NCBI RefSeq assembly: GCF_044704955.1
Contig: NC_091998.1
Span: 44,640,001-44,704,000, forward strand
Reading direction: 5' to 3'
Length of the DNA: 64,000 nucleotides
From: Pristiophorus japonicus
Lineage: Eukaryota
Program-made: the position numbers and the translations under genes
Notes under the pieces: model-generated
What the model saw: the letters and a program-made list of their open reading frames with translations, nothing else
The model's database searches: none
What the model was told of the DNA's origin: nothing
Shown here: positions 7,490 to 64,000 of the stretch, one piece after another
How positions within the stretch are numbered: position 1 is the first letter of the stretch
How the letters are laid out: every line of letters starts with the position of its first letter

Positions 7490-10400
7490 TCACTCCCCCT
7501 GCCCAAAGTCAAAGTGAAAACTATTTACAAGGTGAGGCGGTCGGGAGCCTTTCTTTCCCTGGTGGACCGCCTCGGTACAAATGTCTGATCTGGTGTGTTG
7601 GCTGTGCCTTCGCTGGGCTGGCGTGTTGTTGGCCCTGCTGGGTGAGCTTGGCCTTGCTGGGCTGTTGGGCGTGATGGGTTCGATTTCCTGGTCCGGGGTG
7701 GTGCCATTGATCCTTTGGGTGTGTGTTGTGGGCTCGAAAAAGGTGGTGGCTGCTGTGGGTTGTTCAGGGCAGTCTGAACCGCAGCCTCGTTTGGTTCAGG
7801 TGCTTTCTGAAAATTTGTCCATTGTCTAATTTGACTTACTCCCTTCTTTAGCTATGACCATGCCCGCGATCCATAGTTTAGCACATACGCAGGGCCATTC
7901 AGATCAATTTCCCGTGACACAGTGGCGCGACCATCGTTTAAATTTTGTTGCTGTTGCCTGCTCTCTACCTGATCATGCAGGTTGGAGTGAACCAGCGAGA
8001 GTCTGGTTCTAAGTGTCTTTTTCATGAGTAGCTCAGCCGGGGCACCCCTGTGAGCGAGTGGGGTCTCGTGCGGTAGCTGAGCAGTACTCGGGACAGGCGG
8101 GTTTGGAGTGAGCCTTCCGTGACTCGTTTAAGGCTCTGTTTGATGGTTTGTACTGCCCGCTCTGCCTGCCCATTGGAGGCTAGTTTAAACGGGGCCGAGG
8201 TGACATGTTTGATCCCAATGCGGATCATGAATTCTTTAAATTTGGCACTGGTAAAACATGGCCCGTTGTCACTGACCAGTATGTCAGGCAGGCCGTGGTT
8301 GGCAAACATGGCCCTCAGGCTTTCAATGGTGGCGGTGGCGGTGCTTCCCGACATTATTTCACAGTCAATCCATTTTGAAAAAGCATCCACCACCACCAGG
8401 AACATTTTATCGAGAAACGGGCCCGCATAGTCGACATGGATCCTCGACCATGGTCTGGAGGGCCAGGACCACAAACTTAGTGGTGCCTCTCTGGGCGCGT
8501 TGCTCAACTGAGTACATACGCTGCATTGCCGTACACAGGACTCTAAGTCAGAGTCAATACCGGGCCACCACACGTGGGATCTGGCTATCGCTTTCATCAT
8601 TACTACACCTGGGTGTGTGCTGTGGAGATCCGAGATGAACGTCTCCCTGCCCTTTTTTGGTAGCACTATGCGGTTACCCCACAACAGGCAGTCTACCTGA
8701 ACGGACAGCTCGTGCTTTCGCCGCTGGGACGGCTTGATTGGCTCTTGCATTTCAATGGGGATGCTGGTCCAAGTCCTAATCTGGCAGGCTGTGACAGGTG
8801 ATTTATCATTTTCAAACGCTTCCATGATCATCAACAAGTTTGCAGGCTGCGCCATTTCCACCCCTGTGGTGGGCAATGTTAGCCGACTGAGAGCATCCGC
8901 ATAGTTCTCGGTGCCTGGCCTGTGACGGATGGTATAGTTATACGCTGATAGCGCGAGTGCCCACCTTTGTATGCGGGCTGAGGCATTAGTATTTATCCCC
9001 TTGTTTTCAGCGAACAGGGATGTGAGGGGCTTGTGATCGGTTTCCAGCTCAAATTTGAGGCCAAACAGGTACTGATGCATTTTCTTTACCCCGAACACAC
9101 ACGCTCTTTCTCAATCATGCTGTCGGCCCTCTCGGCCTTAGACAAGCTCCTGGAAGCATAGGCGACAGGTTGCAACTTCCCCGCAACGTTAGCTTGTAAT
9201 ACACACCCGACTCCGTACGACGACGCATCACATGCTAGCACAAGTCTTTTACACGGGTTATACAACACAAGCAGCTTGTTGGAGCATAAAATGTTCCTGG
9301 CTTTCTCAAAAGCAAATACTTGTTTTTTTTCCCCATACCCAGTTCTCACCTTTGCACAATAACACATGTAGGGGCTCTAAAAGGGTGCTTAACCCCGAGA
9401 GGAAGTTACCAAAATAGTTGAGGAGTCCCAGGAACGAGCGCAGCTCCGTGACGTTCTGTGGCCTGGGCGCGTTCCTGATAGCCTCTGTCTTGGCGTCTGT
9501 GGGCCGAATGCCGTCCGCCGCGATCTTTCTCCCCAAAAACTCCACTTCTGTTGCCATGAAGAAGCATTTCGACCTCTTCAGCCGCAGCCCTACGCGATCC
9601 AGTTGCTGGAGGACCTCCTCCAGGTTTTGTAGTTGCTCGGCGGTGTCCTGACCCGTGATCAATATGTCGTCCTGAAAGACCACCATGTGTGGTACCGACT
9701 TGAGTAGGCTCTCAATGTTTCTCTGGAAGATCGCTGCAGCCAACCGAATTCCAAACGGGCATCTGTTGTAGATGAACAGTCCCTTGTGCGTGTTGATGCA
9801 GGTGAGGCCCTTCGAAGACTCCTCCAGCTCCTGCGTCATGTAGGCCGAAGTCAGGTCGAGCTTGGTGAACGTCTTGCCTCCTGCCAGCGTCGCAATTAGG
9901 TCATCTGCCTTCGGTAGCGGGTATTGGTCCTGTAGCGAGAAACAATTAATAGTTACTTTATAATCGCCGCAAATCCTGACCGTGCTATCACTTTTGAGTA
10001 CTGGCACAATCGGGCTGGTCCACTCGCTGAATTCCACTGGGGAGATGATGCCCTCGCGTTGCAGCCTGTCCAACTCGATTTCCACTCTCTCCCTCTTCAT
10101 GTGAGGTACCGCTCGCGCCTTGTGGTGAATGGGTCGTGCCTCTGGGACCAAGTGGATCCGCACCTTCGCCCTGGAAAAGTTTCCAATGCCTGGCTCAAAA
10201 AGGGAAGGAAATTTGTTAAAAACCTGGGTACATGAGGCCTCATCGCCATGTGATAGCGCTCAGATGTCATCCCAGTTCCAGTGGATTTTGCCCAGCCAGC
10301 TCCTTCCAAGCAGTGTGGGGCCATCGCCCGGGACAATCCAGAGTGGCAGTTTGTGCACCGTGCCTTCGTAGGTGACCTTGACCATGGCGCTGCCCAGGAC

Positions 10401-11533
10401 AGTGATAAGCTCTTTGGTGTATGTTCTCAGTTTCGTGTGGATGGGACTCAGGGCTGGTCTGAATGCCTTGTTCGACCACTGTCTCTCAAACATCTTTTTA
10501 CTCATGATGGATTGGCGAGCGCTAGTGTCCAGTTCCATGGCTTCGGGTAAGCCATTAAATTTTACGTTTCGCATTATAGGTGGACATTTCGTCGAAAATG
10601 TGTGCACCCTGTGTACTTAAGCATCTGCCTCCTCTCTCTGAGGCTCGAAATTGCTTTGATCCACCATGGACTGATCTTCCTCTGCCACGTGGCGGTTAGC
10701 AGGTTTTGCAGCAGCTCGTTGGAGGTGCCCCATTGTTCCACAGCTCTTGCAAACATACCCTTTGAAGTGGCATGAATAGGCTGAATGGAAACCTCCGCAA
10801 CGCCAACAAGGTGTGAATTGCCTTGCATTCATCCTTTGTTGGGGACTCTGAGTCATCTGGGTCACCTGAGGCCTGCTGGCAGTTGCAGACTCGTGGGTTC
10901 TGCCCTGTACATTTCTGCTCACAAACACAGTTCCAGTTAATTTATGAACATTGCTAGCACTTGTGTGCTGAGAGATTTGTTTGGTGTTATCACTGGTGGA
11001 CATAAACGCCTGTGCTATCGCAATGGCCTTACTGAGGGTCGGTGTCTCTACAGTCAAAAGTTTTCGTCGGATGATCTCATGGCTAATGCCCAGTGCAGAA
11101 AAGTCTCTGAGCATTTGCTCCAGGTAGCCATCAAACTCACATTGTCCTGCAAGTCACCTTAGCTCGGCGACGTAGCTCACCACTTCCTGACCTTCAGATC
11201 GCTGGCACGTGTAGAACCGATACCTCGCCATCAGCACGCTCTTCCTCGGGTTAAGATGCTCCCGAACCAGTGTACACAGCTCCTCATACGACTTATCTGT
11301 GGGTTTCACCAGAGCCAGAAGATTCTTCATGAGGCTGTAGGTCAGTGCCCCGCAGACTGTGAGGAGGACCGCTCTCCTTTTTGCAGCGCTTCCTTCTCCG
11401 TCCAGCTCGTTGGCTACAAAGTACTGGTCTAGCCATTTGACATAGGCTTCCCAGTCCTCACCATCCGAGAACTTCTCCAGGATGCCCACAGTTTGCTGCA
11501 TCTTTGCGTTGGATTTGTATTCTCGTCGCCAGT

Positions 11534-11744
11534 TCTTGTGTTCCTAACACAGATGAGGCTGCACACAGGGAGGTTAAAGTAACAGTGACCTCAGTCTTTA
11601 ATAAGACACTCCAGAGTGAGGAACAGGCCTTAGGGGCCGGCTGATATACAGTGCTCCCAAGGGATGCTGGGATCCCTTGGGACTTCAGGCGATGCGCTCA
11701 TTGGTGGCGGTACATGGGAGTGCATGCTTTACAGATACACAACA
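11534..11744 (-). repeat. Gypsy 5' LTR (211 bp)
   Basis: Termini TGTTGTG...CACAAGA on the minus strand, followed after 2 nt by the PBS TGGCGACGAG, which I recall as complementary to the 3' end of tRNA-Ser(GCT). Confidence 0.93.
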
Positions 11745-32095: not shown

Positions 32096-32364
32096 CTGTA
32101 GAGGAGACAATATTATTCCACGAATATTAGCTCATCAATTACTTCATTTCTTAAAATATTGACCAATTATAACAGCAATTATCCAGGATACTTGTGGTGT
32201 AATTTAAAAAAGGTACTATGCGTTGACAATCAAGGTGTGTTTGCGGGGGGGGAAACTATGATCCTGTTCAAGGCTCCTTGGTTGAATCATCACCTTTTCT
32301 ATGTTTTTTTAAAAATACAAAATTACAGTGCTAGATAAATGCAAGTCTACCATTCGTCACTTAC

Positions 32365-32653
32365 CAAACATGGCACTGACCGACCCAGCCATGAGCACTT
32401 CTTGAGTCGTGTTGAACATCTTCACATCAATTATTCCTTTACGGATGGTCTCACTGACGTTGGCACCCAGCAGCACAGAGCCCAACGTTTCAAAGATTGT
32501 TGCCAAGATGCAGGCTTTCCTGAGTGTCAGTACACCTGAACCAACTGCCGTCCCAAACGAATTGGCTACATCATTGGCTCCCACCGAGAACGCCAGAATA
32601 AATGCAATGATGAAACCAACTACTACCAGCCACAGCCAGTTATCTAGAGCCAT
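32365..32653 (-). CDS. SLC20A1: SLC20A1 first coding exon ([49 protein letters not shown])
   Basis: ATG in ACCATGG context, GANDVAN signature, donor G|GTAAGT. All ten exons sum to 2019 nt (672 aa plus stop). Confidence 0.96.
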
Positions 32654-32934
32654 GGTCACTCGGGCTCGTAATGCTTAAGAGGTACGGAGTTTTAAAAAAA
32701 TACTATTGACTTAAATATACAAAATGAGGTAACAAAATATTTTGATATGTAATAAATAACAATTAAATAGAGTATGAAGATTAATATGCACTACACTCAA
32801 GTATTGTGCAGCAGTAATTGCTATCCACTGTGTTTAATAGTCTGTCTTGCATAGTCTTTACAACAGTCAACAATTAGAAGGATTGAAGCGAAATCCATTG
32901 TGGACACAGCAACAGATTTGAGCTGTTCTTCATC
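32654..32934 (-). promoter_or_regulatory. SLC20A1: SLC20A1 5' leader within the first coding exon, with three overlapping uORFs (32933-32874, 32898-32821, 32852-32781)
   Basis: Acceptor ttttccacAG|GATGAAG at 32934. uORF peptides MKNSSNLLLCPQWISLQSF*, MDFASILLIVDCCKDYARQTIKHSG* and MQDRLLNTVDSNYCCTILECSAY* were read directly. Confidence 0.75.
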
Positions 32935-35159
32935 CTGTGGAAAAGCAGAGGGCACATATTACAAACATGTAGCAATATTTCATCATTACTCAACTTTTGC
33001 CAGAGTTCCAAATAATCAGTCAATAAATCCCTTCAATCATCATTTTCTTCCTATGCCCAAGATCACCATTTCAGATTCTGTACTATTAAGCAGAAGTGAA
33101 AAACTACATGTGAAACAACATTTCACCACCATAGTCCAATCAATAAAAAGAATTCCAAACCAGAGAATTCTGTGCACCACACATCCAGATTTGTTAAAAA
33201 GAAATTGATATTGCCCAAACATTTTACATCAGTTCACTAAAATAGCGGTGTGAAGTCCCATCACAATCTTAAAAGACTTGAATTACATTTACATTAAGAG
33301 GGAAAAATAACAAACTGTTTAAGATGTAACTTGAGTTGCCTGAATAGTAATCATTATTAGAAATGAAATCTGAAGGTTCACAACAGAAACGGCTTCCAAT
33401 TGAGCACCCTGTAATAATGTCTGGGCAAATGCACTGTAGTACCAAGTTACAAAAGACTGGAAGTTCCTAAATTCGACCCTTGAGGCTTGGATCTGGGCTG
33501 AATTAACTAACGGTCACATTGATCATGGGGTCAATACAATCAAACACAGTTTCAGAGCAAGAGAGCGAGGTGATGGAGAGAGAACAACAAATAGAAGTTT
33601 CTGATCACTGCCAGCTCTTAGATGACAAATGGAAACAGCATTGGACTTGGCTGCGATAACCTGTACAAGCCATTGGCCCACTGAGACATGCCTACCAGGG
33701 CAAGATACCACGGGGCTGCCAACATCCAGAACCACACTCCAGCAAGAACCAGCAGAAAACCCACAGCACCCTAAACTGTAGCAATAATCTGCTGTCAATG
33801 GGTGTGTGTACTGGGAAATCACGAGAACTAGAAACTTATCAGTCTCCCATCCTCCTCCCTCCGCAAGGCACAGCTCTCAACATTCTGCGACTTATCTATT
33901 CCACATCACACCCCATTCGCCCAAATGTCTGGCCTCCAAAGATCTACATTAGCTTCCAATCCCCCAATAATTCAAAATTAATGCTGTTGCCAGTTCTTCT
34001 ATGGTCTTCACCTTGTTTACATACTCAAACCTATCCTATCTTTACCCAGCATCTACTCCCACCATGTCTTCAGACATCTAGGGCCACGCTCCAAAATTCC
34101 CTCAAAACATCTCCATTCCTAAAATCCACCCTTTTGCTCAAGCTTTTGTTCATCCCTCAATCGCTCTGGTTTGGCACCCATTTCTCATCACACCTGATGT
34201 ATTTTGACACTTTTCCATTTAAAAAGCATAGAGGGGGGCACTGTCTTCCCCCAGCTGCTTTTAACAACAGAATTAAAATCTTAGTCTAATAATTCTGCAT
34301 AATGGTTCAAAAATATTTACTACTAGAACAAATGAACTCGATGGAAATACCAGCAAAATCGCATTTACATAATCTCTTTGAAAATACAAAAATGTTCCAA
34401 AGTGCTGAAGTGCATTTTTTTTTAAATGGACGCTGAGCCAGAATTTATGAAGCAGTTTGGCCAAAGGCTTAGTCAGGGAGGGACTTGGGGAGAAAGCAGA
34501 AGTCACCCATTTTTCCAGCGCCAAGCATTAATTTAAAATATACAGTACGTGCGTGTGCATGCCAGAAAGCAAACTTCAAAGCTCAGCGTGTCAAACTACT
34601 AGAGGATAAACTCAGTCTACCACAATCGATTTAGACCAAGATTTAAATGCAACATTATTCGAGGGAAATCAGCGATTTAAATTTTTTTTTAATACGATTG
34701 CAATTTTCAAAACGCTTTGATTACATGTTAAAAGCCAAATTTAAAAAGGACACAATTTAGTGGAAATCCCGGAAGGAGGGAGAGAAACAATGCTGAAGAT
34801 GGTTTCCAGCGATTTCCTATTGCGATTTTAAAGCGTTAACATTTTCGCGCCTCTTTGTAACGTTTGAAAACAGTAAACAGGAAATGTACTCCCGCCGAGT
34901 CTATTTCAACCCGGCTAGGCTAGCTCGGGGGGGGGGGGGGGGGGGGTGGGATACAGGCGCCTTCCCCGATCCCAGGGATGAGGCTCACTCATCACAAATT
35001 AATTATTTTTTATTCCCTCCAATAAGGGAGAGAGAGAATGCACCAGCGGCCGGTAACAGAAACCGGCCTCTTCCCCAATGGATTGGCAACTTGAGGCACC
35101 CTTTCTGCCCCCCAGTGACTGTACACCCCCTCCTCCCACCGTGACTGGGTACGCTCGTT

Positions 35160-36335
35160 CTCTCTCCCCAATGAATGGGCACCCTTCTCTCTCTAATCCC
35201 CCAGTGAATGGGCACCCTTCTCTCTCCAACCTCCCCAGTGAATGGGCACCCTTCTCTCTCTCTCCAACCTCCCCAGTGAATGGGCACCCTTCTCTCTCTC
35301 TCTCCAACCTCCCCAGTGAATGGGCACCCTTCTCTCTCTCTCCAACCTTCCCAGTGAATGGGCACCCTTCTCTCTCTAACCCCCCAGTGAATGGGCACCC
35401 TTCTCTCTCCAACCTCCCCAGTGAATGGGCACCCTTTTCTCTCTCTCTCCAACCTCCCCAGTGAATGGGCACCCTTCTCTCTCTCTCCAACCTCCCCAGT
35501 GAATGGACACCCTTCTCTCTCTCTCTCCAACCTTCCCAGTGAATGGGCACCCTTCTCTCTCTCTCCAACCTCCCCAGTGAATGGACACCCTTCTCTCTCT
35601 CTCTCCAACCTCCCCAGTGAATGGACACCCTTCTCTCTCTCTCCAACCTCCCAGTGAATGGGCACCCTTCTCTCTCTCTCCAACCTCCCAATGAATGGGA
35701 TCCCTTCTCTCTCTCTCCAACCTCCCCAGTGAATGGTCACCCGTCTCTCTCCAACCTCCCCAGTGAATGGTCACCCGTCTCTCTCCAACCTTCCCAGTGA
35801 ATGGGCACCCGTCTCTCTCTAACCTCCCCAGTGAATGGGCACCCGTCTCTCTCTCTAACCTTCCCAGTGAATGGGCACCCGTCTCTCTCTCTCCAACCTC
35901 CCAGTGAATGGGCACCCATCTCTCTCTCCAACCTCCCCAGTGAATGGGCACCCTTTTCTCGCTCTCCAACCTCCCCAGTGAATGGACACCCTTCTCTCTC
36001 CAACCTCCCCAGTGAATGGGCACCCTTCTCTCTCTCTCTCCAACCTCCCCAGTGATTGGGCACCCCTTCTCTCTCTCTACTTCCCCCCCCCCCTTTTTAC
36101 CCATCCAGAAATGGTCACCCCCGATCCCCCACCCCAGGGTCAGTAAATGGTCACCCAGATCCTCCTCCTCTCTCCACCCCCCCACCTCCCCTCCGGAGTC
36201 AGTGAATGTTCACCCCAGATCCCCCTCCCCCCCGGTCAGTGAATGGTCACCCCCGAGGTCAGTGAATGGTCACCCCCGATCCCCCTCCCAGAGGACAGTG
36301 AATGGTCACCCCCGATCCCCGGTCAGTGAATGGGT
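35160..36335. repeat. Minisatellite of about 35-43-bp units, CCCAGTGAATGGGCACCCTT(CT)nCCAACCTC, upstream of the SLC20A1 coding exons (putative intron 1)
   Basis: Over 20 visible tandem units that differ mainly in (CT)n length. The array degenerates toward 36335. Confidence 0.95.
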
Positions 36336-36879
36336 ATTCCACCCGGCCGCCGCTCGCGACCGGTTGGTGCCGGTCTGCAGTCGGTGTGTGAGCACGAACG
36401 AGTGTGTGTGGGGGCTCCGCGAGCTCCCCCTCGCGCCTGCTGCCAATCAGCTCCGGTCCAGGCCCAGCCCGCCCGCTGAATGAATGAGGCCAGCCACGCC
36501 GGATTGTTCTGGAATATACCGGAGCTGCCGTCGGCCGCATGCGACAGGCCCGAAAACCGGGGAGGGGGGAAGGAACCAGCCATTTCCCTCACACGAAGGC
36601 AAGTGGGCCTCGTACCGCGCCGAACCAACCATGTACCCCCCGAACTTACCAATTAACGATACGACTCTAATCGGTACGATGAGGCAAAGTTAGAGCGAGT
36701 CGGACGCGCGGACAACGGCCAGCCGCGCTCTCCGAAGTTGGCACTCCCGAACCACTCGGTAACCACGGCGCTGGGCACAAACCTCCCCTCTCCGAACGGA
36801 CGTGTCTCGGGAAGGACTACTCGGATGCCTGTCGCGGTTGACGATCGCGCTCTGTTACCAAAGATAACCTCCCGCTCAC

Positions 36880-36945
36880 CAGCTGTCCGCCATCTAATGC
36901 GCGGCCCCGCCTCGCCGCCTCTTATAGGCGTCGTGACGTCGCGGA
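36880..36945 (-). promoter_or_regulatory. SLC20A1: Putative SLC20A1 core promoter and very short exon 1
   Basis: Minus strand reads CRE-like GACGTCA (36940-36934), TATAAG (36926-36921), GC box GAGGCGGGG, Inr-like GCATT (A at 36898, 28 nt from TATA), then ATGGCGGACAGCTG|GTGAGC with a donor at 36880. Lies within a CpG island (about 36340-37010). Confidence 0.65.
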
Positions 36946-37192
36946 ACACGAACGCGCTGGCGTCACCGCCCTCCGCGCGTGCGGCACGCACCCAGGGTTC
37001 CGCAAGGTAAAAAAAAAGGACAAGACCCAGAAGCGCTTTTGCAGCCAAATCAAGCACTTTTTGAAGTGCAGTCACTGTTGTAATGTAGGAAACGCGGCAG
37101 CCAATACGCGCACAGCAAGCTCCCCACAAACAGCAATGTGATAATGTCCAGATAATCTTTTTTAGTGACACAAAAGCTAAATGCTGCGGATG

Positions 37193-40321: not shown

Positions 40322-42148
40322 CTTCAGAATGAGAGGGAATCTCATAGAAACATATAAAATTCTGACGGGATTGGAAAGGTTAGAGGCTGGGTAGTTCCAG
40401 AACCAGGGGTCACAGTCTAAGGATAAGGGGTAAGCCATTTAGGACCGAGATGAGGAGAAACTTCTTCACTCAGAGAGTGGTTAACCTGTGGAATTCTCTA
40501 CCGCAGAAAGTTGTTGAGGCCAGTTCGTTAGATATATTCAAAAGGGAGTTAAATATGGCCCTTATGGCCAAAGGGATCAAGTGATATGGAGAGAAAGCAG
40601 GAAAGGGGCACTGAGATTGAATGATCAGCAATGTAACCCCACTTTTAAAAAAAGGAGGGAGAGAGAAAACAGAGAATTATAGACCAGTCAGCCTGACATC
40701 AGTAGTGGGTAAAATGATGGAATCAATTATTAAGGATGTCATAGCAGCGCATTTGGAAAGAGGTGACATGATAGGTCCAAGTCAGCATGGATTTATGAAA
40801 GGGAAATCATGCTTGACAAATCTTCTGGAATTCTTTGAGGATGTTTCCAGTGGAGTGGACAAGGGAGAACCAGTTGATGTGGTATATTTGGACTTTCAGA
40901 AGGCTTTCGACAAGGTCCCACACAAGAGATTAATGTGCAAAGTTAAAGCACATGGGATTGGGGGTAGTGTGCTGACATGGATTGAGAACTGGTTGTCAGA
41001 CAGGAAGCAAAGAGTAGGAGTAAATGGGTACTTTTCAGAATGGCAGGCAGTAACTAGTAGGGTACCGCAAGGTTCTGTGCTGAGGCCCCAGCTGTTTACA
41101 TTTGGACGAGGGGATTAAATGTAGTATCTCCAAATTTGCGGATGACACTAAGTTGGATGGCAGTGTGAGCTGCAAGGAGGATGCAATGAGGCTGCAGAGT
41201 GACTTGGATAGGTTAGGTGAGTGGGCAAATGCATGGCAGATAAAGTATAATGTGGATAAATGTGAGGTTATCCACTTTGGTGGTAAAAACAGAGAGACAG
41301 ACTATTATCTGAATGTTGACAGATTAGGAAAAGGGGAGGTGCAACGAGACCTGGGTGTCATGGTACATCAGTCATTGAAGGTTGGCATGCAGGTACAGCA
41401 GGCGGTTAAGAAAGCAAATGGCATGTTGGCCTTCATAGCAAGGGGATTTGAGTACAGGGGCAGGGAGGTGTTGCTACAGTTGTACAGGGCCTTGGTGAGG
41501 CCACACCTGGAGTATTGTGTACAGTTTTGGTCTCCTAAATTGAGGAAGGACATTCTTGCTATTGAGGGAGTGCAGCGAAGGTTCACCAGACTGATTCCCG
41601 GGATGGTGGGACTGACATATCAAGAAAGACTGGATCAACTGGACTTGTATTCACTGGAGTTCAGAAGAATGAGAGAGGATCTCATAGAAACGTTTAAAAT
41701 TCTGACGGGTTTAGTCAGGTTAGATGCAGGAAGAATGTTCCCAATGTTTGGGAAGTCCAGAACCAGGGGTCACAGTCTAAGGATAAGGGGTAAGCCATTT
41801 AGGATCGAGATGAGGAGAAACTTCTTCACCCAGAGAGTGGTGAACCTGTGGAATTCTCTACCACAGAAAGTTGTTGAGGCCAATTCATTAAATATATTCA
41901 AAAAGGAGTTAGATGAGGTCCTTACTACTAGGGGGATCAAGTGGTTTGGTGAGACATCAGGAATGGGGTACTGAGGTTGCATGTTCAGCCATGTTCTCAT
42001 TGAATGGCGGTGCAGGCTCGAAGGGCCGAATGGCCTACTCCTGCACCTATTTTCTATATTTCTATATGTTTCTATGGTCTTATTGAATGGCGGTGCAGGC
42101 TCGAAGGGCCGAATGGCCTGTTCCTGCACCTCATTTCTATGTTTCTAT
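40322..42148 (+). mobile_element. Young CR1 LINE: a 3' fragment (40322-40628) followed by a 1.5-kb RT-coding copy with a duplicated 3' UTR hairpin unit
   Basis: ORFs 40621-41118 and 41102-41974 carry NYRPVSLTS, QHGF, LDFQKAFDKVPH, VPQGSVL, KFADDTK and RPHLEYCVQFW. Confidence 0.95.
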
Positions 42149-52975: not shown

Positions 52976-53146
52976 ACACAGAAACAAGCAGGAATATGTA
53001 TGGGGTGTATTTTTGTGAATACCTACTGTTCTTCAGCCAAATAGAAACATAGATATCTACAGCGCAGAAGGAGGCCATTTCAGCCCATTGTGTCCGCGAC
53101 GGCCGACAAAGAGCCACACGACCCTCGCTTAGCAGCCCTGAAGGTT

Positions 53147-54700
53147 ATTATCATCATCATAGGCAGTCCCTCGGAATCGAGGAACTCCTGAAGTGAGTTC
53201 TTTGGTGGCTGAACAGTCCAATACGAGACTCTGTCACAGGTGGGACAGATAGTCATTGAGTTAAGGGGTGGGTGGGACTGGTTTGCCGCACACTCTTTCC
53301 GCTGTCTGCGCTTGATTTCTGCATGCTCGCGGCGTTGAGACGCGAGGTGCTCAGCGCCCTCTCGGATGCACTTCCTCTACTAAGGGCGGTCTTGGGCCAG
53401 GGATTCCCAGGTATCAGTGGGGATGTTGCACTTTATCAGGGAAGCTTTGAGGGTGTTCTTGTAGTGTTTCCGCTGCCCACCTTTGGCTCGTTTGCCATGA
53501 AGGAGCTCCGAGTAGAGCACTTGCTTTGGAAGTCTCGTGTCTGGCATGCGGACTTTGTGGCCTGCCCAGCAGAGCTGATCGAGTGTGGTCAGTGCTTCAC
53601 TGGTGGGGATGTTAGCCTAAATGAGGACGCTGATGTTGGTGCGCCTGTCCTCCCAGTAATTTGTAGGATCTTGCGGAGACATCGTTGGTGATATTTCTCC
53701 AGCAACTTGAGGTGTCTACTGTACATGGTCTATGTCTCTGAGCCATACAGGAGGGCAGGTATTACTACAGCCCTGTAGACCATGAGCTTGGTAGCAGTTT
53801 TGAGGGCCTGGTCTTCAAACACTCCCTTCCGAAGGCAACCGAAGGCTGCACTGGTGCACCAGAGGCGTTGTTGGATCTCGTCAACGATGCCTACTCTTGT
53901 TGATAGGAGGCTCCCGAGATATGGGAAGTGGTCCACGCGCCGTGGATCTTGATGACTGGGGGGCAGTGCTGTGCGGTGAGGACCTTTGTCTTACGGATGT
54001 TTAGCGTAAGGCCCATGCTTTCGTACGCCTCAGTAAATACGTCGACTATGTCCTGGACTGCAGCTTCTGTATGTGCGCAGACGCAGGCGTCGTCCACGTA
54101 CTGTAGCTCAACGACAGAGGTTGGGGGGGGTCTTGGATCTGGCCTGGAGACGGCGCAGGTTGAACAGGTTCCCACTGGTTCTGTAGTTTAGTTCCACTCC
54201 AACGGGGAGCTTGTTGACTGTGAGGTGGAGCATGGTGGCAAGAAAGATTGAGAAGAGGGTTGGGGCGATGACTCAGCCCTGTTTGACCCTGATCCGGAAG
54301 TGGATGGATCCGTTGGTAAGGATCACGGATTGCATGTCGTCGTGGAGCAGGCGGAGGATGGTGACGAACTTTTGGGGGCATCCGAAACGGAGGAGGACAC
54401 TCCATAGACCCTTGTGGTTGACAGTGTCAAAGGCCTTTGTAAGGTCGAAGAAGACCATGTATAAGGGCTGGCGCTGCTTCCTGCGTTTTTCCTGTAGCTG
54501 CCTCGCTGCAAAAATCATGTCCATTGTACCCTGTAGGAGACGAAATCCGCACTGTGACTCCGGGAGGAGCTCCACGGCCACGGGAAGAAGACGGTTGAGG
54601 AGGACTCTAGCGACGACTTTCCCAGTGGCTGATAGCAGGGAGATTCCTCTGTAGTTGCCGCAGTCAGACTTGTCCCCTTTTTTAAAGATGGTCACGATTT
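53147..54700 (-). mobile_element. RTE-clade LINE, 5'-truncated (RT domain to (GAT)n tail)
   Basis: KKGDKSDCGNYRGISLLS, LPESQCGFR, FFDLTKAFDTV, VKQG, LQYVDD (degenerate YADD), HFPYLGS, LLYGSET. Tail GACTGCCTATGATGATGAT. Confidence 0.93.
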
Positions 54701-60848: not shown

Positions 60849-63800
60849 TGTTGTGTTCCTAACACAGATGAGGCTGCACACAGGGAGGTTAAAGTATCAG
60901 TGACCTCAGTCTTTTATTAAGACACTCCAGAGTAAGTAACAGGCCTTAGGGGCTGGCTTATGTACAGTGCTCTCAAGGGATGCTGGGATCCCTTGGGACT
61001 TCAGGGGATGTGCTCCCTGGTGGCAGAACATGGGAGTGCATGCTTTACAGATACACAACATCAAAGTCAAAGTGAAAACTATTTACAAGATGAGGCGGTC
61101 GGGAGCCTTTCTTTCCCTGGTGGACTGCCTCGGTACAAATGCCTGTTCTGGTGTGTTGGCTGTGCCCTCGCTGGCCTGGCGTGTTGTTGGCCCTGTAGGG
61201 CTGCTGGGTGAGCCTAGCCTTGCTGGGCTGTTGGGCGTGATGGTTTCGATTTCCTGGTCCGGCGTGGTGTCGTTGATCCTTTGGGTGTGTGTTGTGGGCT
61301 CGAAAAAGGTGGTGTCTGCTGTGGGTTGCTCAGGGCAGTCTGTGAACCGCAGCCTCATTTGGTCCAGGTGTTTTCTGCAAATTTGTTCATTGTCTAGTTT
61401 GACTACAAACACCCTACTCCCTTCTTTAGCTATCACCGTACCCGCGATCCAGTTGGGACCATGTCCATAGTTTAGCACATACACAGGGTCATTCAGATCA
61501 ATTTCCCGTGACACAGTGGCACGACCATCGTTTACATTTTGTTGCTGCCGCCTGCTCTCTACCTGATCATGCAGGTTGGGGGTGAACCAGCGAGAGTCTG
61601 GTTTTAAGTGTCCCTTTCATGAGTAGCTCAGCCGGAGGCACCCCTGTGAGCGAGTGAGGTCTCGTGCGGTAGCTGAGCAGTCCCCGGGACAGGCGGGTTT
61701 GAAATGGGCCTTCTGTGACTCGTTTAAGGCTCTGTTTGATTGTTTGTACTGCCCGCTCTGCCTGCCCATTGGAGGCTGGTTTAAACAGGACCGAGGTGAC
61801 AAGTTTGATCCCATTGCGGGCCATAAATTCTTTAAATTCGGCACTGGTGAAACGTGGCTCATTGTCACTGACCAGTATGTCAGGCAGGCCGTGGGTGACA
61901 AACATGGCCCTCAGACTTTCAATGGTGGCGGTGGCGGTGCTTCCCGACAATATTTCACATTCAATCCATTTTGAAAAAACATCCACCACCACCAGGAACA
62001 TTTTACCGAGAAACGGGCCCGCATAGTCGACATGGATCCTCGACCATGGTCTGGAGGGCCAGGACCACAAACTTAGTGGTGCCTCTCTGGGCGCGTTGCT
62101 CAACTGAGCATACACGCTGCATTGCCATACACAGGACTCTAAGTCATAGTCGATACCGGGCCACCACACGTGGGATCTGACTATCGCTTTCATCATTACT
62201 GTACCCGGGTGTGTGCTGTGGAGATCCGAGATGAACGTCTCCCTGCCCTTTTTGGGTAGCACTACGTAGTTACCCCACAACAGGCAGTCTGCCTGAATGA
62301 ACAGTTTGTCCTTTCGCCGCTGGAACGGCTTGATTAGCTCTTGCATTTCAACGGGGATGCTGGCCCAGCTCCCATGCAGTACACAGATTTTTACTAGGGA
62401 CAGCAGAGGATCTTGGCTGGTCCAAGTCCTAATCTGGCGGGCCGTGACAGGTGATTTATCATTTTCAAACGCTTCCATGACTATCAACAAGTCTGCGGGC
62501 TGTGCCACCATCAACAAGTTTGCAGACTGCGCCATTTCCACCCCCGTGGTGGATAATTGTAGCCGACTGAGAGCATCCGCACAGTTCTCGGTGCCTGGCC
62601 AGTGGCGGATGGTATAGTTATACTCTGATCGCGTGAGTGCCCACCTTTGTATGTAGGCTGGGGCATTAGTATTTATCCCCTTGTTTTCAGCGAAGAGGGA
62701 TATGAGGGGCTTGTGATCGGTTTCCAGCTCAAATTTGAGGCCAAACAGGTACTGATGCATTTTCTTTACCCCCTCTTTCTCAATCATGCTGTTGGCTCGC
62801 TCGGCTTTAGACAAGCTCCTGGAAGCATAGGCGATAGGTTGCAACTTCCCTGCAACATTAACTTGTTGTAATATACACACGACTCCATACGACAATGCAT
62901 CACATGCTAGCACGAGTCTTTTACATGGGTTATACAATACAAGCAGCTTGTTGGAGCATAAAATGTTTCTGGCTTTCTCAAAAGCAATTACTTGTTTTTT
63001 TTTCCCCATACCCAGTTCTCATCTTTACGCAATAACACATGTAGGGGCTCTAAGAGGGTGCTTAACCCCGGTAGGAAGTTACCAAAATAGTTGAGGAGTC
63101 CCAGGAACGACAGCAGCTCCGTGACGTTCTGTGGCCTGGACGCGTTCCTGATAGTCTCTGTCTTGGCGTCTGTGGGCCAAATGTCGTCCGCCGCGATCTT
63201 TCTCCCCAAAAACTCCACTTCTGTTGCCATGAAGACGCATTTCGACCTCTTCAGCTGCAGACCTACGCAATCCAGTCGCTGGAGGACTTCCTCCAGGTTT
63301 TGTAGGTGCTCGACGGTGTCCTGACCCGTGACCAATATGTCGTCCTGAAAAACCACTGTGCGTGGTACCGACTTGAGTAGGCTCTCCATGTTTCTCTGGA
63401 AGATCGCTGCAGCCAACCGAATTCCAAACGGGCATCTGTTGTAGATGAACAGTCTCTTGTGCATGTTGATACAGGTGAGGCCCTTCGAAGACTCCTTCAG
63501 CTCCTGCGTCATGTAGGCCGAAGTCAGGTCGAGCTTGGTGAACGTCTTGCCTCCTGCCAGCGTCGCAAATAGGTCTGCCTTAGGTAGCGAGTATTGGTCC
63601 TGTAGCGAGAAACAATTAATAGTTACTTTATAATCGCCGCAAATCCTGACCGTGCCATCACTTTTGAGTACTGGAACAATCGGGCTGGCCCACTCGCTGA
63701 ATTCCACTGGGGAGATGATGCCCTTGCGTTGCAGCCTGTCTAGCTCGATTTCCACTCTCTCCCTCATCCAGTGAGGTACCGCTCGCGCCTTGTGGTGAAT

Positions 63801-64000
63801 GGGTCATGCGTCTGGGACCAAGTGGATCTGCACCTTCGCCCTGGAAAAGTTTCCAATGCCTGGCTCAAAAAGGGAAGGAAATTTGTTAAGAACCTGTGTA
63901 CATGAAGCCTCATCGACATGTGATAGCGCTCGGATGTCATTCCAGTTCCAGCGGATTTTGCCCAGCCAGCTCCTTCCAAGCAGTGTGGGGCCATTGCCCG
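60849..64000 (-). mobile_element. Second Gypsy copy (3' LTR 60849-61060, integrase, RNase H, RT, end of protease), runs off the window
   Basis: 212-bp LTR with perfect TGTTGTG..CACAACA termini. ORFs 61083-63767 are highly similar to the first copy. Confidence 0.96.

Follow-up and report, generated by a model that had tools for sequence, protein, structure and literature searches.

An upstream open reading frame of shark SLC20A1 that matches human SLC20A1 and the SLC20A2 paralog in place and length: a candidate ancient translational brake

The second of three upstream open reading frames (uORFs) within the leader of SLC20A1 (PiT-1) of the shark Pristiophorus japonicus matches one uORF of human SLC20A1 and another of the SLC20A2 paralog in place and length, and on balance we favour the reading that this element, uORF2, is an ancient brake, which would act by being translated and not through its peptide. 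Judged from its occurrence in both genes, the brake probably predates the duplication into SLC20A1 and SLC20A2 and would thus have existed before the split of sharks and bony vertebrates, over 400 million years ago. The main ATG of SLC20A1 is located at position 32653, on the minus strand, of the 64,000-nt stretch of DNA that was analysed (NC_091998.1, positions 44,640,001 to 44,704,000; hereafter the window), and all three AUG ORFs fall within the first 154 nt of the 281-nt leader segment preceding it (Table 1). The material compared consisted of the DNA of two sharks and rows of a human ORF catalogue.

Table 1. Features of the shark SLC20A1 leader, in window positions unless a locus is given
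Feature	Position	Strand	Remarks
Non-coding exon 1	36650..36801	-	at least 152 nt; donor GT at 36649; matched by the loose end of a spliced contig
5-codon AUG ORF	36876..36893	-	directly 3' of a TATA-like motif; may fall outside the transcript
Intron 1	32935..36649	-	based on a spliced contig
uORF1	32874..32933	-	19 codons, weak context; stops at base 25 of uORF2; human equivalent c2norep137 (17 codons)
uORF2	32821..32898	-	25 codons, strong context ACAATGG; human equivalent c2riboseqorf74 (25 codons)
Positional homologue of uORF2 in SLC20A2	L002:1256-1330		24 codons
uORF3	32781..32852	-	23 codons, begins within uORF2
AUG-free spacer	32654..32820	-	167 nt, from uORF2 stop to main ATG; 170 nt in the SLC20A2 paralog
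First coding part of SLC20A1 (PiT-1)	32365..32653	-	96 codons; gene continues to about 22534

The gene had been named SLC20A1 in the initial annotation, and this was borne out by protein matches to its variable loop exon and by comparison with a paralog in the same genome. The loop exon retrieved 1138 protein matches at E<=1e-20; among the best 120 of these none is named transporter 2, the names given being either transporter 1 or generic, and a named sawshark record is the top match (100%). Exon 2 has one other match in the genome, a full gene on another contig (C1), which scores below the window gene against 120/120 of the best loop-exon matches and retrieves proteins named transporter 2. 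These comparisons identify the window gene as SLC20A1 and that on C1 as SLC20A2. Searches against the PDB gave a distant phosphate transporter (6l85) as the sole match to exon 2 and no match to the loop exon. All 10 cartilaginous-fish SLC20A1 proteins printed lack the N-terminal extension of about 20 residues present in coelacanth and tetrapods (window 32630-32653), their N-terminus starting like that of SLC20A2. Shark SLC20A2, for its part, contains two similar exons about 1 kb apart (L091:9130-9267 and L092:77-166) that match transporter residues 593-622, which suggests a pair of mutually exclusive exons; several vertebrates have named isoform pairs of equal length.

All three uORFs of the initial annotation were recovered on the minus strand at the positions of Table 1: uORF1, starting 1 nt past the splice acceptor, uORF2, with an identical peptide, and uORF3, overlapping uORF2. 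In a spliced contig from the same organism, one that skips the next intron, the loose end at 32935 matches window 36680-36651; exon 2 is thus joined to a non-coding exon 1, and the three uORFs sit inside the mRNA leader. The joining of exon 1 to 32934 was found in spliced contigs of two organisms, and the weak context of uORF1 in the spliced message is made up of U at -3 and A at +4. A TATA-like motif (36926-36921) and, directly preceding it, two motifs that we take to be CRE/ATF-like occupy 36921-36965, at the edge of a GC-rich promoter region. Intron 1 carries a minisatellite with about 25 copies of a 38-nt unit (35164-36078). Elsewhere in the window there are broken reading frames, presumably of LTR-retrotransposon type (8025-11543 and 61086-63803), and fragments that we take to be LINE-like (near 40600-42000 and 53000-54700).

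As a mere count the uORF stack is ordinary, since 3000 dinucleotide shuffles give 6.0 AUGs on average where three were observed (P(>=3)=0.98), and uORF number was therefore ruled out as a signal. The AUG-free last 196 nt of the leader are mildly unusual (P=0.023), and the spacer of the SLC20A2 paralog is also free of AUGs (P 0.008).

The arrangement of uORF1 and uORF2 recurs in human SLC20A1. The initial annotation had described a human uORF of 25 codons; it exists, its peptide agreeing letter for letter with the Ribo-seq ORF c2riboseqorf74, catalogued as translated (PMC10032668 supplement), and its length is that of shark uORF2 (25/25 codons). It is overlapped by c2norep137 (PMC10032668), which has 17 codons compared with 19 in shark uORF1 and likewise stops at base 25 of the longer frame. 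According to the catalogue rows, the distance from the start of uORF1 to that of uORF2 is 29 nt in human as against 35 nt in shark, a difference of two codons, and in both uORF1 ends 24 nt past the uORF2 start. The chance of a given ORF length of 25 codons is about 0.01. This agreement in length and overlap register upholds the earlier view of uORF2 as an ancient element. From the stack described initially, what stands is the conserved pair of uORF1 and uORF2, whereas uORF3 has no match among the three human SLC20A1 catalogue rows and is likely incidental. A 14-codon uORF is catalogued in exon 1 of human SLC20A1 (PMC10032668), and a human SLC20A1 AUG uORF, the article's figure leaving open which, is pictured to exemplify the highly ranked Ribo-seq ORFs (PMC8262740).

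The shark SLC20A2 leader has a strong-context AUG 39 nt past the acceptor, which opens a frame of 24 codons with its stop 170 nt before the main ATG, as compared with 36 nt, 25 codons and 167 nt for uORF2 of SLC20A1. Such a match between paralogs arose in 17 of 20000 shuffled leaders when a strong context was demanded and in 461 of 20000 when it was not, the tolerance behind both counts having been chosen after the data were seen. DNA alignment was dropped as a proof of homology, as the leaders of the two shark genes do not align above shuffles (213/500 globally; 56/1000 over the first 140 nt). The homology of the two uORFs therefore rests on position, length and context, together with a weak match of their peptides (50/5000). 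Human SLC20A2 has a catalogued uORF of 24 codons, c8riboseqorf45 (PMC10032668, PMC9943669), equal in length to that of the shark paralog, and, as far as the catalogue rows give them, start, stop and open frame are kept between shark and human over 25/25 codons in SLC20A1 and 24/24 in SLC20A2. Unlike SLC20A1, exon 2 of shark SLC20A2 has no upstream overlapping AUG ORF. Its leader contains a second AUG 5 nt into the uORF (14 codons, L002:1261-1305) and a GT microsatellite within the spacer (L002:1405-1430). A metagenome scan for vertebrate SLC20 loci gave 80 loci, the best 63% identical and none vertebrate-looking; on one metagenome contig, a eukaryotic PiT homologue (63% identical) is preceded by a uORF of 35 codons (L003:190-297), which has a perfect Kozak context and lies 255 nt upstream of the main ATG; the peptide of this uORF has no evident likeness to that of the shark.

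We propose that the two conserved uORFs would work together. With its weak context, uORF1 would let most 40S subunits leak past, and the strong uORF2 would capture most scanning ribosomes, the majority of which would dissociate, with less transporter synthesis as the result, and a minority of which would reinitiate. Ribosomes that translate uORF1 would stop 25 nt beyond the uORF2 AUG, thereby bypassing uORF2, after which the main ATG, 220 nt downstream across the AUG-free spacer, could serve for reinitiation. Knockdown of Denr in mouse cells changed the coding translation efficiency of Slc20a1 by log2 -0.37 (adjusted p 0.0045) and moved its ribosomes toward the 5' UTR, and Slc20a2 was unaffected (-0.05); the reporters named in the text available were of genes other than Slc20a1 (PMC6547434). 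A bypass by way of uORF1 with subsequent reinitiation fits a DENR sensitivity limited to the paralog that has uORF1. Another possible explanation is that the effect on Slc20a1, which is small, could stem from another uORF, such as one of the 14-codon type seen in human exon 1.

Under phosphate starvation, SLC20A1 protein rises far more than its mRNA, and loss of ESCRT accounts for part of this rise; neither UTR nor DENR occurs as a word in the article text available (PMC9123275). As the rise of the protein exceeds that of the mRNA, ESCRT explains it in part and the UTR did not enter that text, a phosphate-responsive role of uORF2 is possible. The rise of PiT-1 under starvation is thus only partly explained, and a uORF conserved in length in both paralogs is a specific candidate. 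A bolder version, which we hold with little confidence, is that both PiT genes inherited one pre-duplication uORF as a phosphate-responsive switch, which would supply the non-ESCRT part of the PiT-1 rise, and that variants of the SLC20A2 copy would have a bearing on brain calcification.

The initial annotation had also suggested that the peptide is conserved and functional in the manner of AMD1/CPA1. Read by eye and without gaps, shark and human have in common 7 of 25 residues in uORF2 of SLC20A1 (positions 1, 3, 5, 7, 8, 19 and 24) and 7 of 24 in the SLC20A2 uORF (1, 2, 3, 7, 14, 15 and 24), and a DNA identity of 50-55% alone predicts 5-7 identical residues. Without the initial Met the identities are 6/24 and 6/23, which is above unrelated peptides (p about 0.003-0.004). 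Most of the identity in uORF2 falls within the N-terminal third. There the bases are further constrained by the conserved stop of the overlapping uORF1, a stop that Leu7-Leu8 carries in the other frame. In known stalling peptides it is the C-terminal part that is conserved, but the last six residues have, by eye, one in common between shark and human SLC20A1 (1/6), and conserved C-terminal stalling residues are thus absent. Mammalian PhyloCSF is strongly negative for the three human ORFs (-344, -286 and -201; PMC10032668). A protein search with the 40-residue open frame that contains uORF2 found no candidate, which is weak evidence. With an identity (7/25) at the level expected from DNA alone and a mammalian PhyloCSF of -344, the suggestion was not borne out, and a peptide function of uORF2 is not favoured.

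In its cis-acting form, in which the peptide would stall its own ribosome in response to phosphate, inositol pyrophosphate or stress, as in AMD1 and CPA1, this alternative appears unlikely to us, even when the starvation response of SLC20A1 protein described above and the excess over unrelated peptides are counted in its favour. The exact uORF length is kept in both paralogs. The N-terminal part is hydrophobic in both shark peptides (for uORF2, hydropathy averages 2.3 over residues 3-11), and the two share L-L-I, encoded by different synonymous codons. Furthermore, the human SLC20A2 uORF is listed among the missense-constrained small ORFs (gnomAD), which favours a peptide role, and its mean phyloP of 4.18, against 2.71 for the gene, is the highest of the 11 uORF rows in the table of that study (PMC11909976).

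A DNA contig of a second shark species (organism B) differs from the window by 8 substitutions and no gap over 32762-32911, and in the coding exon by at least 22 of 96 third codon positions, a lower bound taken from the 35 places in exon 2 among the differences listed (p=8e-5 against the leader block). Two 2-nt insertions, among the differences listed, both lie outside the uORFs. A loose end from organism B has the identical splice junction and keeps the uORF1 AUG; read by eye, it is 3 nt shorter, by which uORF1 would have 18 codons. Downstream of all uORFs, positions 32699-32760 are as conserved as the uORF block itself (3/62 differ), so the constraint on the DNA is not specific to the uORFs. 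Conservation reaching past the uORFs would also be expected if the conserved item were an element in the RNA or DNA where exon 2 begins, for example a splicing enhancer or a protein-binding site, with the ORFs as by-products, and the high phyloP of the SLC20A2 uORF alongside its negative PhyloCSF points the same way. We nevertheless consider such an element improbable, as the leaders fold no better than shuffles (z -0.3 to -0.8), a search of Rfam with 32300-37100 at E 0.5 gave no match, length and register persist though most residues have changed, and the length of uORF1 varies by whole codons (19, 18 and 17). Within the genome, the only match of the uORF block is the block itself.

A stable micropeptide of 25 residues acting in trans, for instance on the transporter in the membrane, would accord with the hydrophobic N-terminal part and with the highly ranked Ribo-seq example, but the human catalogue rows record zero mass-spectrometry studies (PMC10032668), PhyloCSF is negative and identity is low, which makes this reading very improbable. 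Mere coincidence among common short uORFs is just as hard to credit: AUGs are common in an AT-rich leader, the paralog DNA is unalignable and the human ORFs are catalogued as de novo in primates (PMC10032668), but two lengths match exactly (a probability of about 0.01 each), the overlap register is identical and the residue matches involve no gap.

The three human SLC20A1 and SLC20A2 ORFs bear the label young, de novo, the SLC20A1 pair being given as primatomorpha-young; the label is based on a BLASTP cut-off, under which the ORFs scored as conserved are longer (median of 64 versus 37 residues; PMC10032668). Labels of this kind, based on peptide similarity, can overlook elements more than 400 million years old. 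It was already known that the human SLC20 ORFs are catalogued and that uORFs conserved in frame and not in peptide form a described class. In the literature searched, mostly non-subscription, we did not find deep conservation or function of SLC20 uORFs reported. What is new in our comparison of sequences is a strong-context uORF at the same place in both shark paralogs, with an SLC20A2 copy of 24 codons like the human one. Primary familial brain calcification results from loss of SLC20A2. At human chr8:42472571, ClinVar has a variant of uncertain significance that introduces a stop at codon 15 of the SLC20A2 uORF (PMC9943669), and this codon specifies a cysteine in both human and shark; the leader therefore appears worth including in variant interpretation.

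Among known systems, ATF4 and GCN4 have delayed-reinitiation leaders, which SLC20A1 resembles in its two uORFs and likely reinitiation. Unlike in those leaders, the two SLC20A1 uORFs overlap one another, and neither of them reaches the main ORF. In place of a permissive uORF, a spacer and an inhibitory uORF, we find that uORF1 overlaps uORF2, so that ribosomes leaving uORF1 would already be beyond the uORF2 AUG, and that uORF2 ends before the main ATG by the full length of the spacer. The 5-codon ORF near exon 1, if transcribed, could represent a permissive first uORF. The attenuator peptides of AMD1 (MAGDIS) and fungal CPA1/arg-2 are strongly conserved, act through their sequence and sense metabolites; the SLC20A1 uORF likewise precedes a gene of small-molecule homeostasis, but its peptide is just about 28% identical. 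The preferred brake, which would act by translation, resembles the uORFs with ORBL 'ORFness', in which start, stop and open frame are kept without conservation of amino acids, as reported for 1335 of 2915 human uORFs across placental mammals (PMC13275300); unlike that class as described, the SLC20 case extends to shark and to a paralog.
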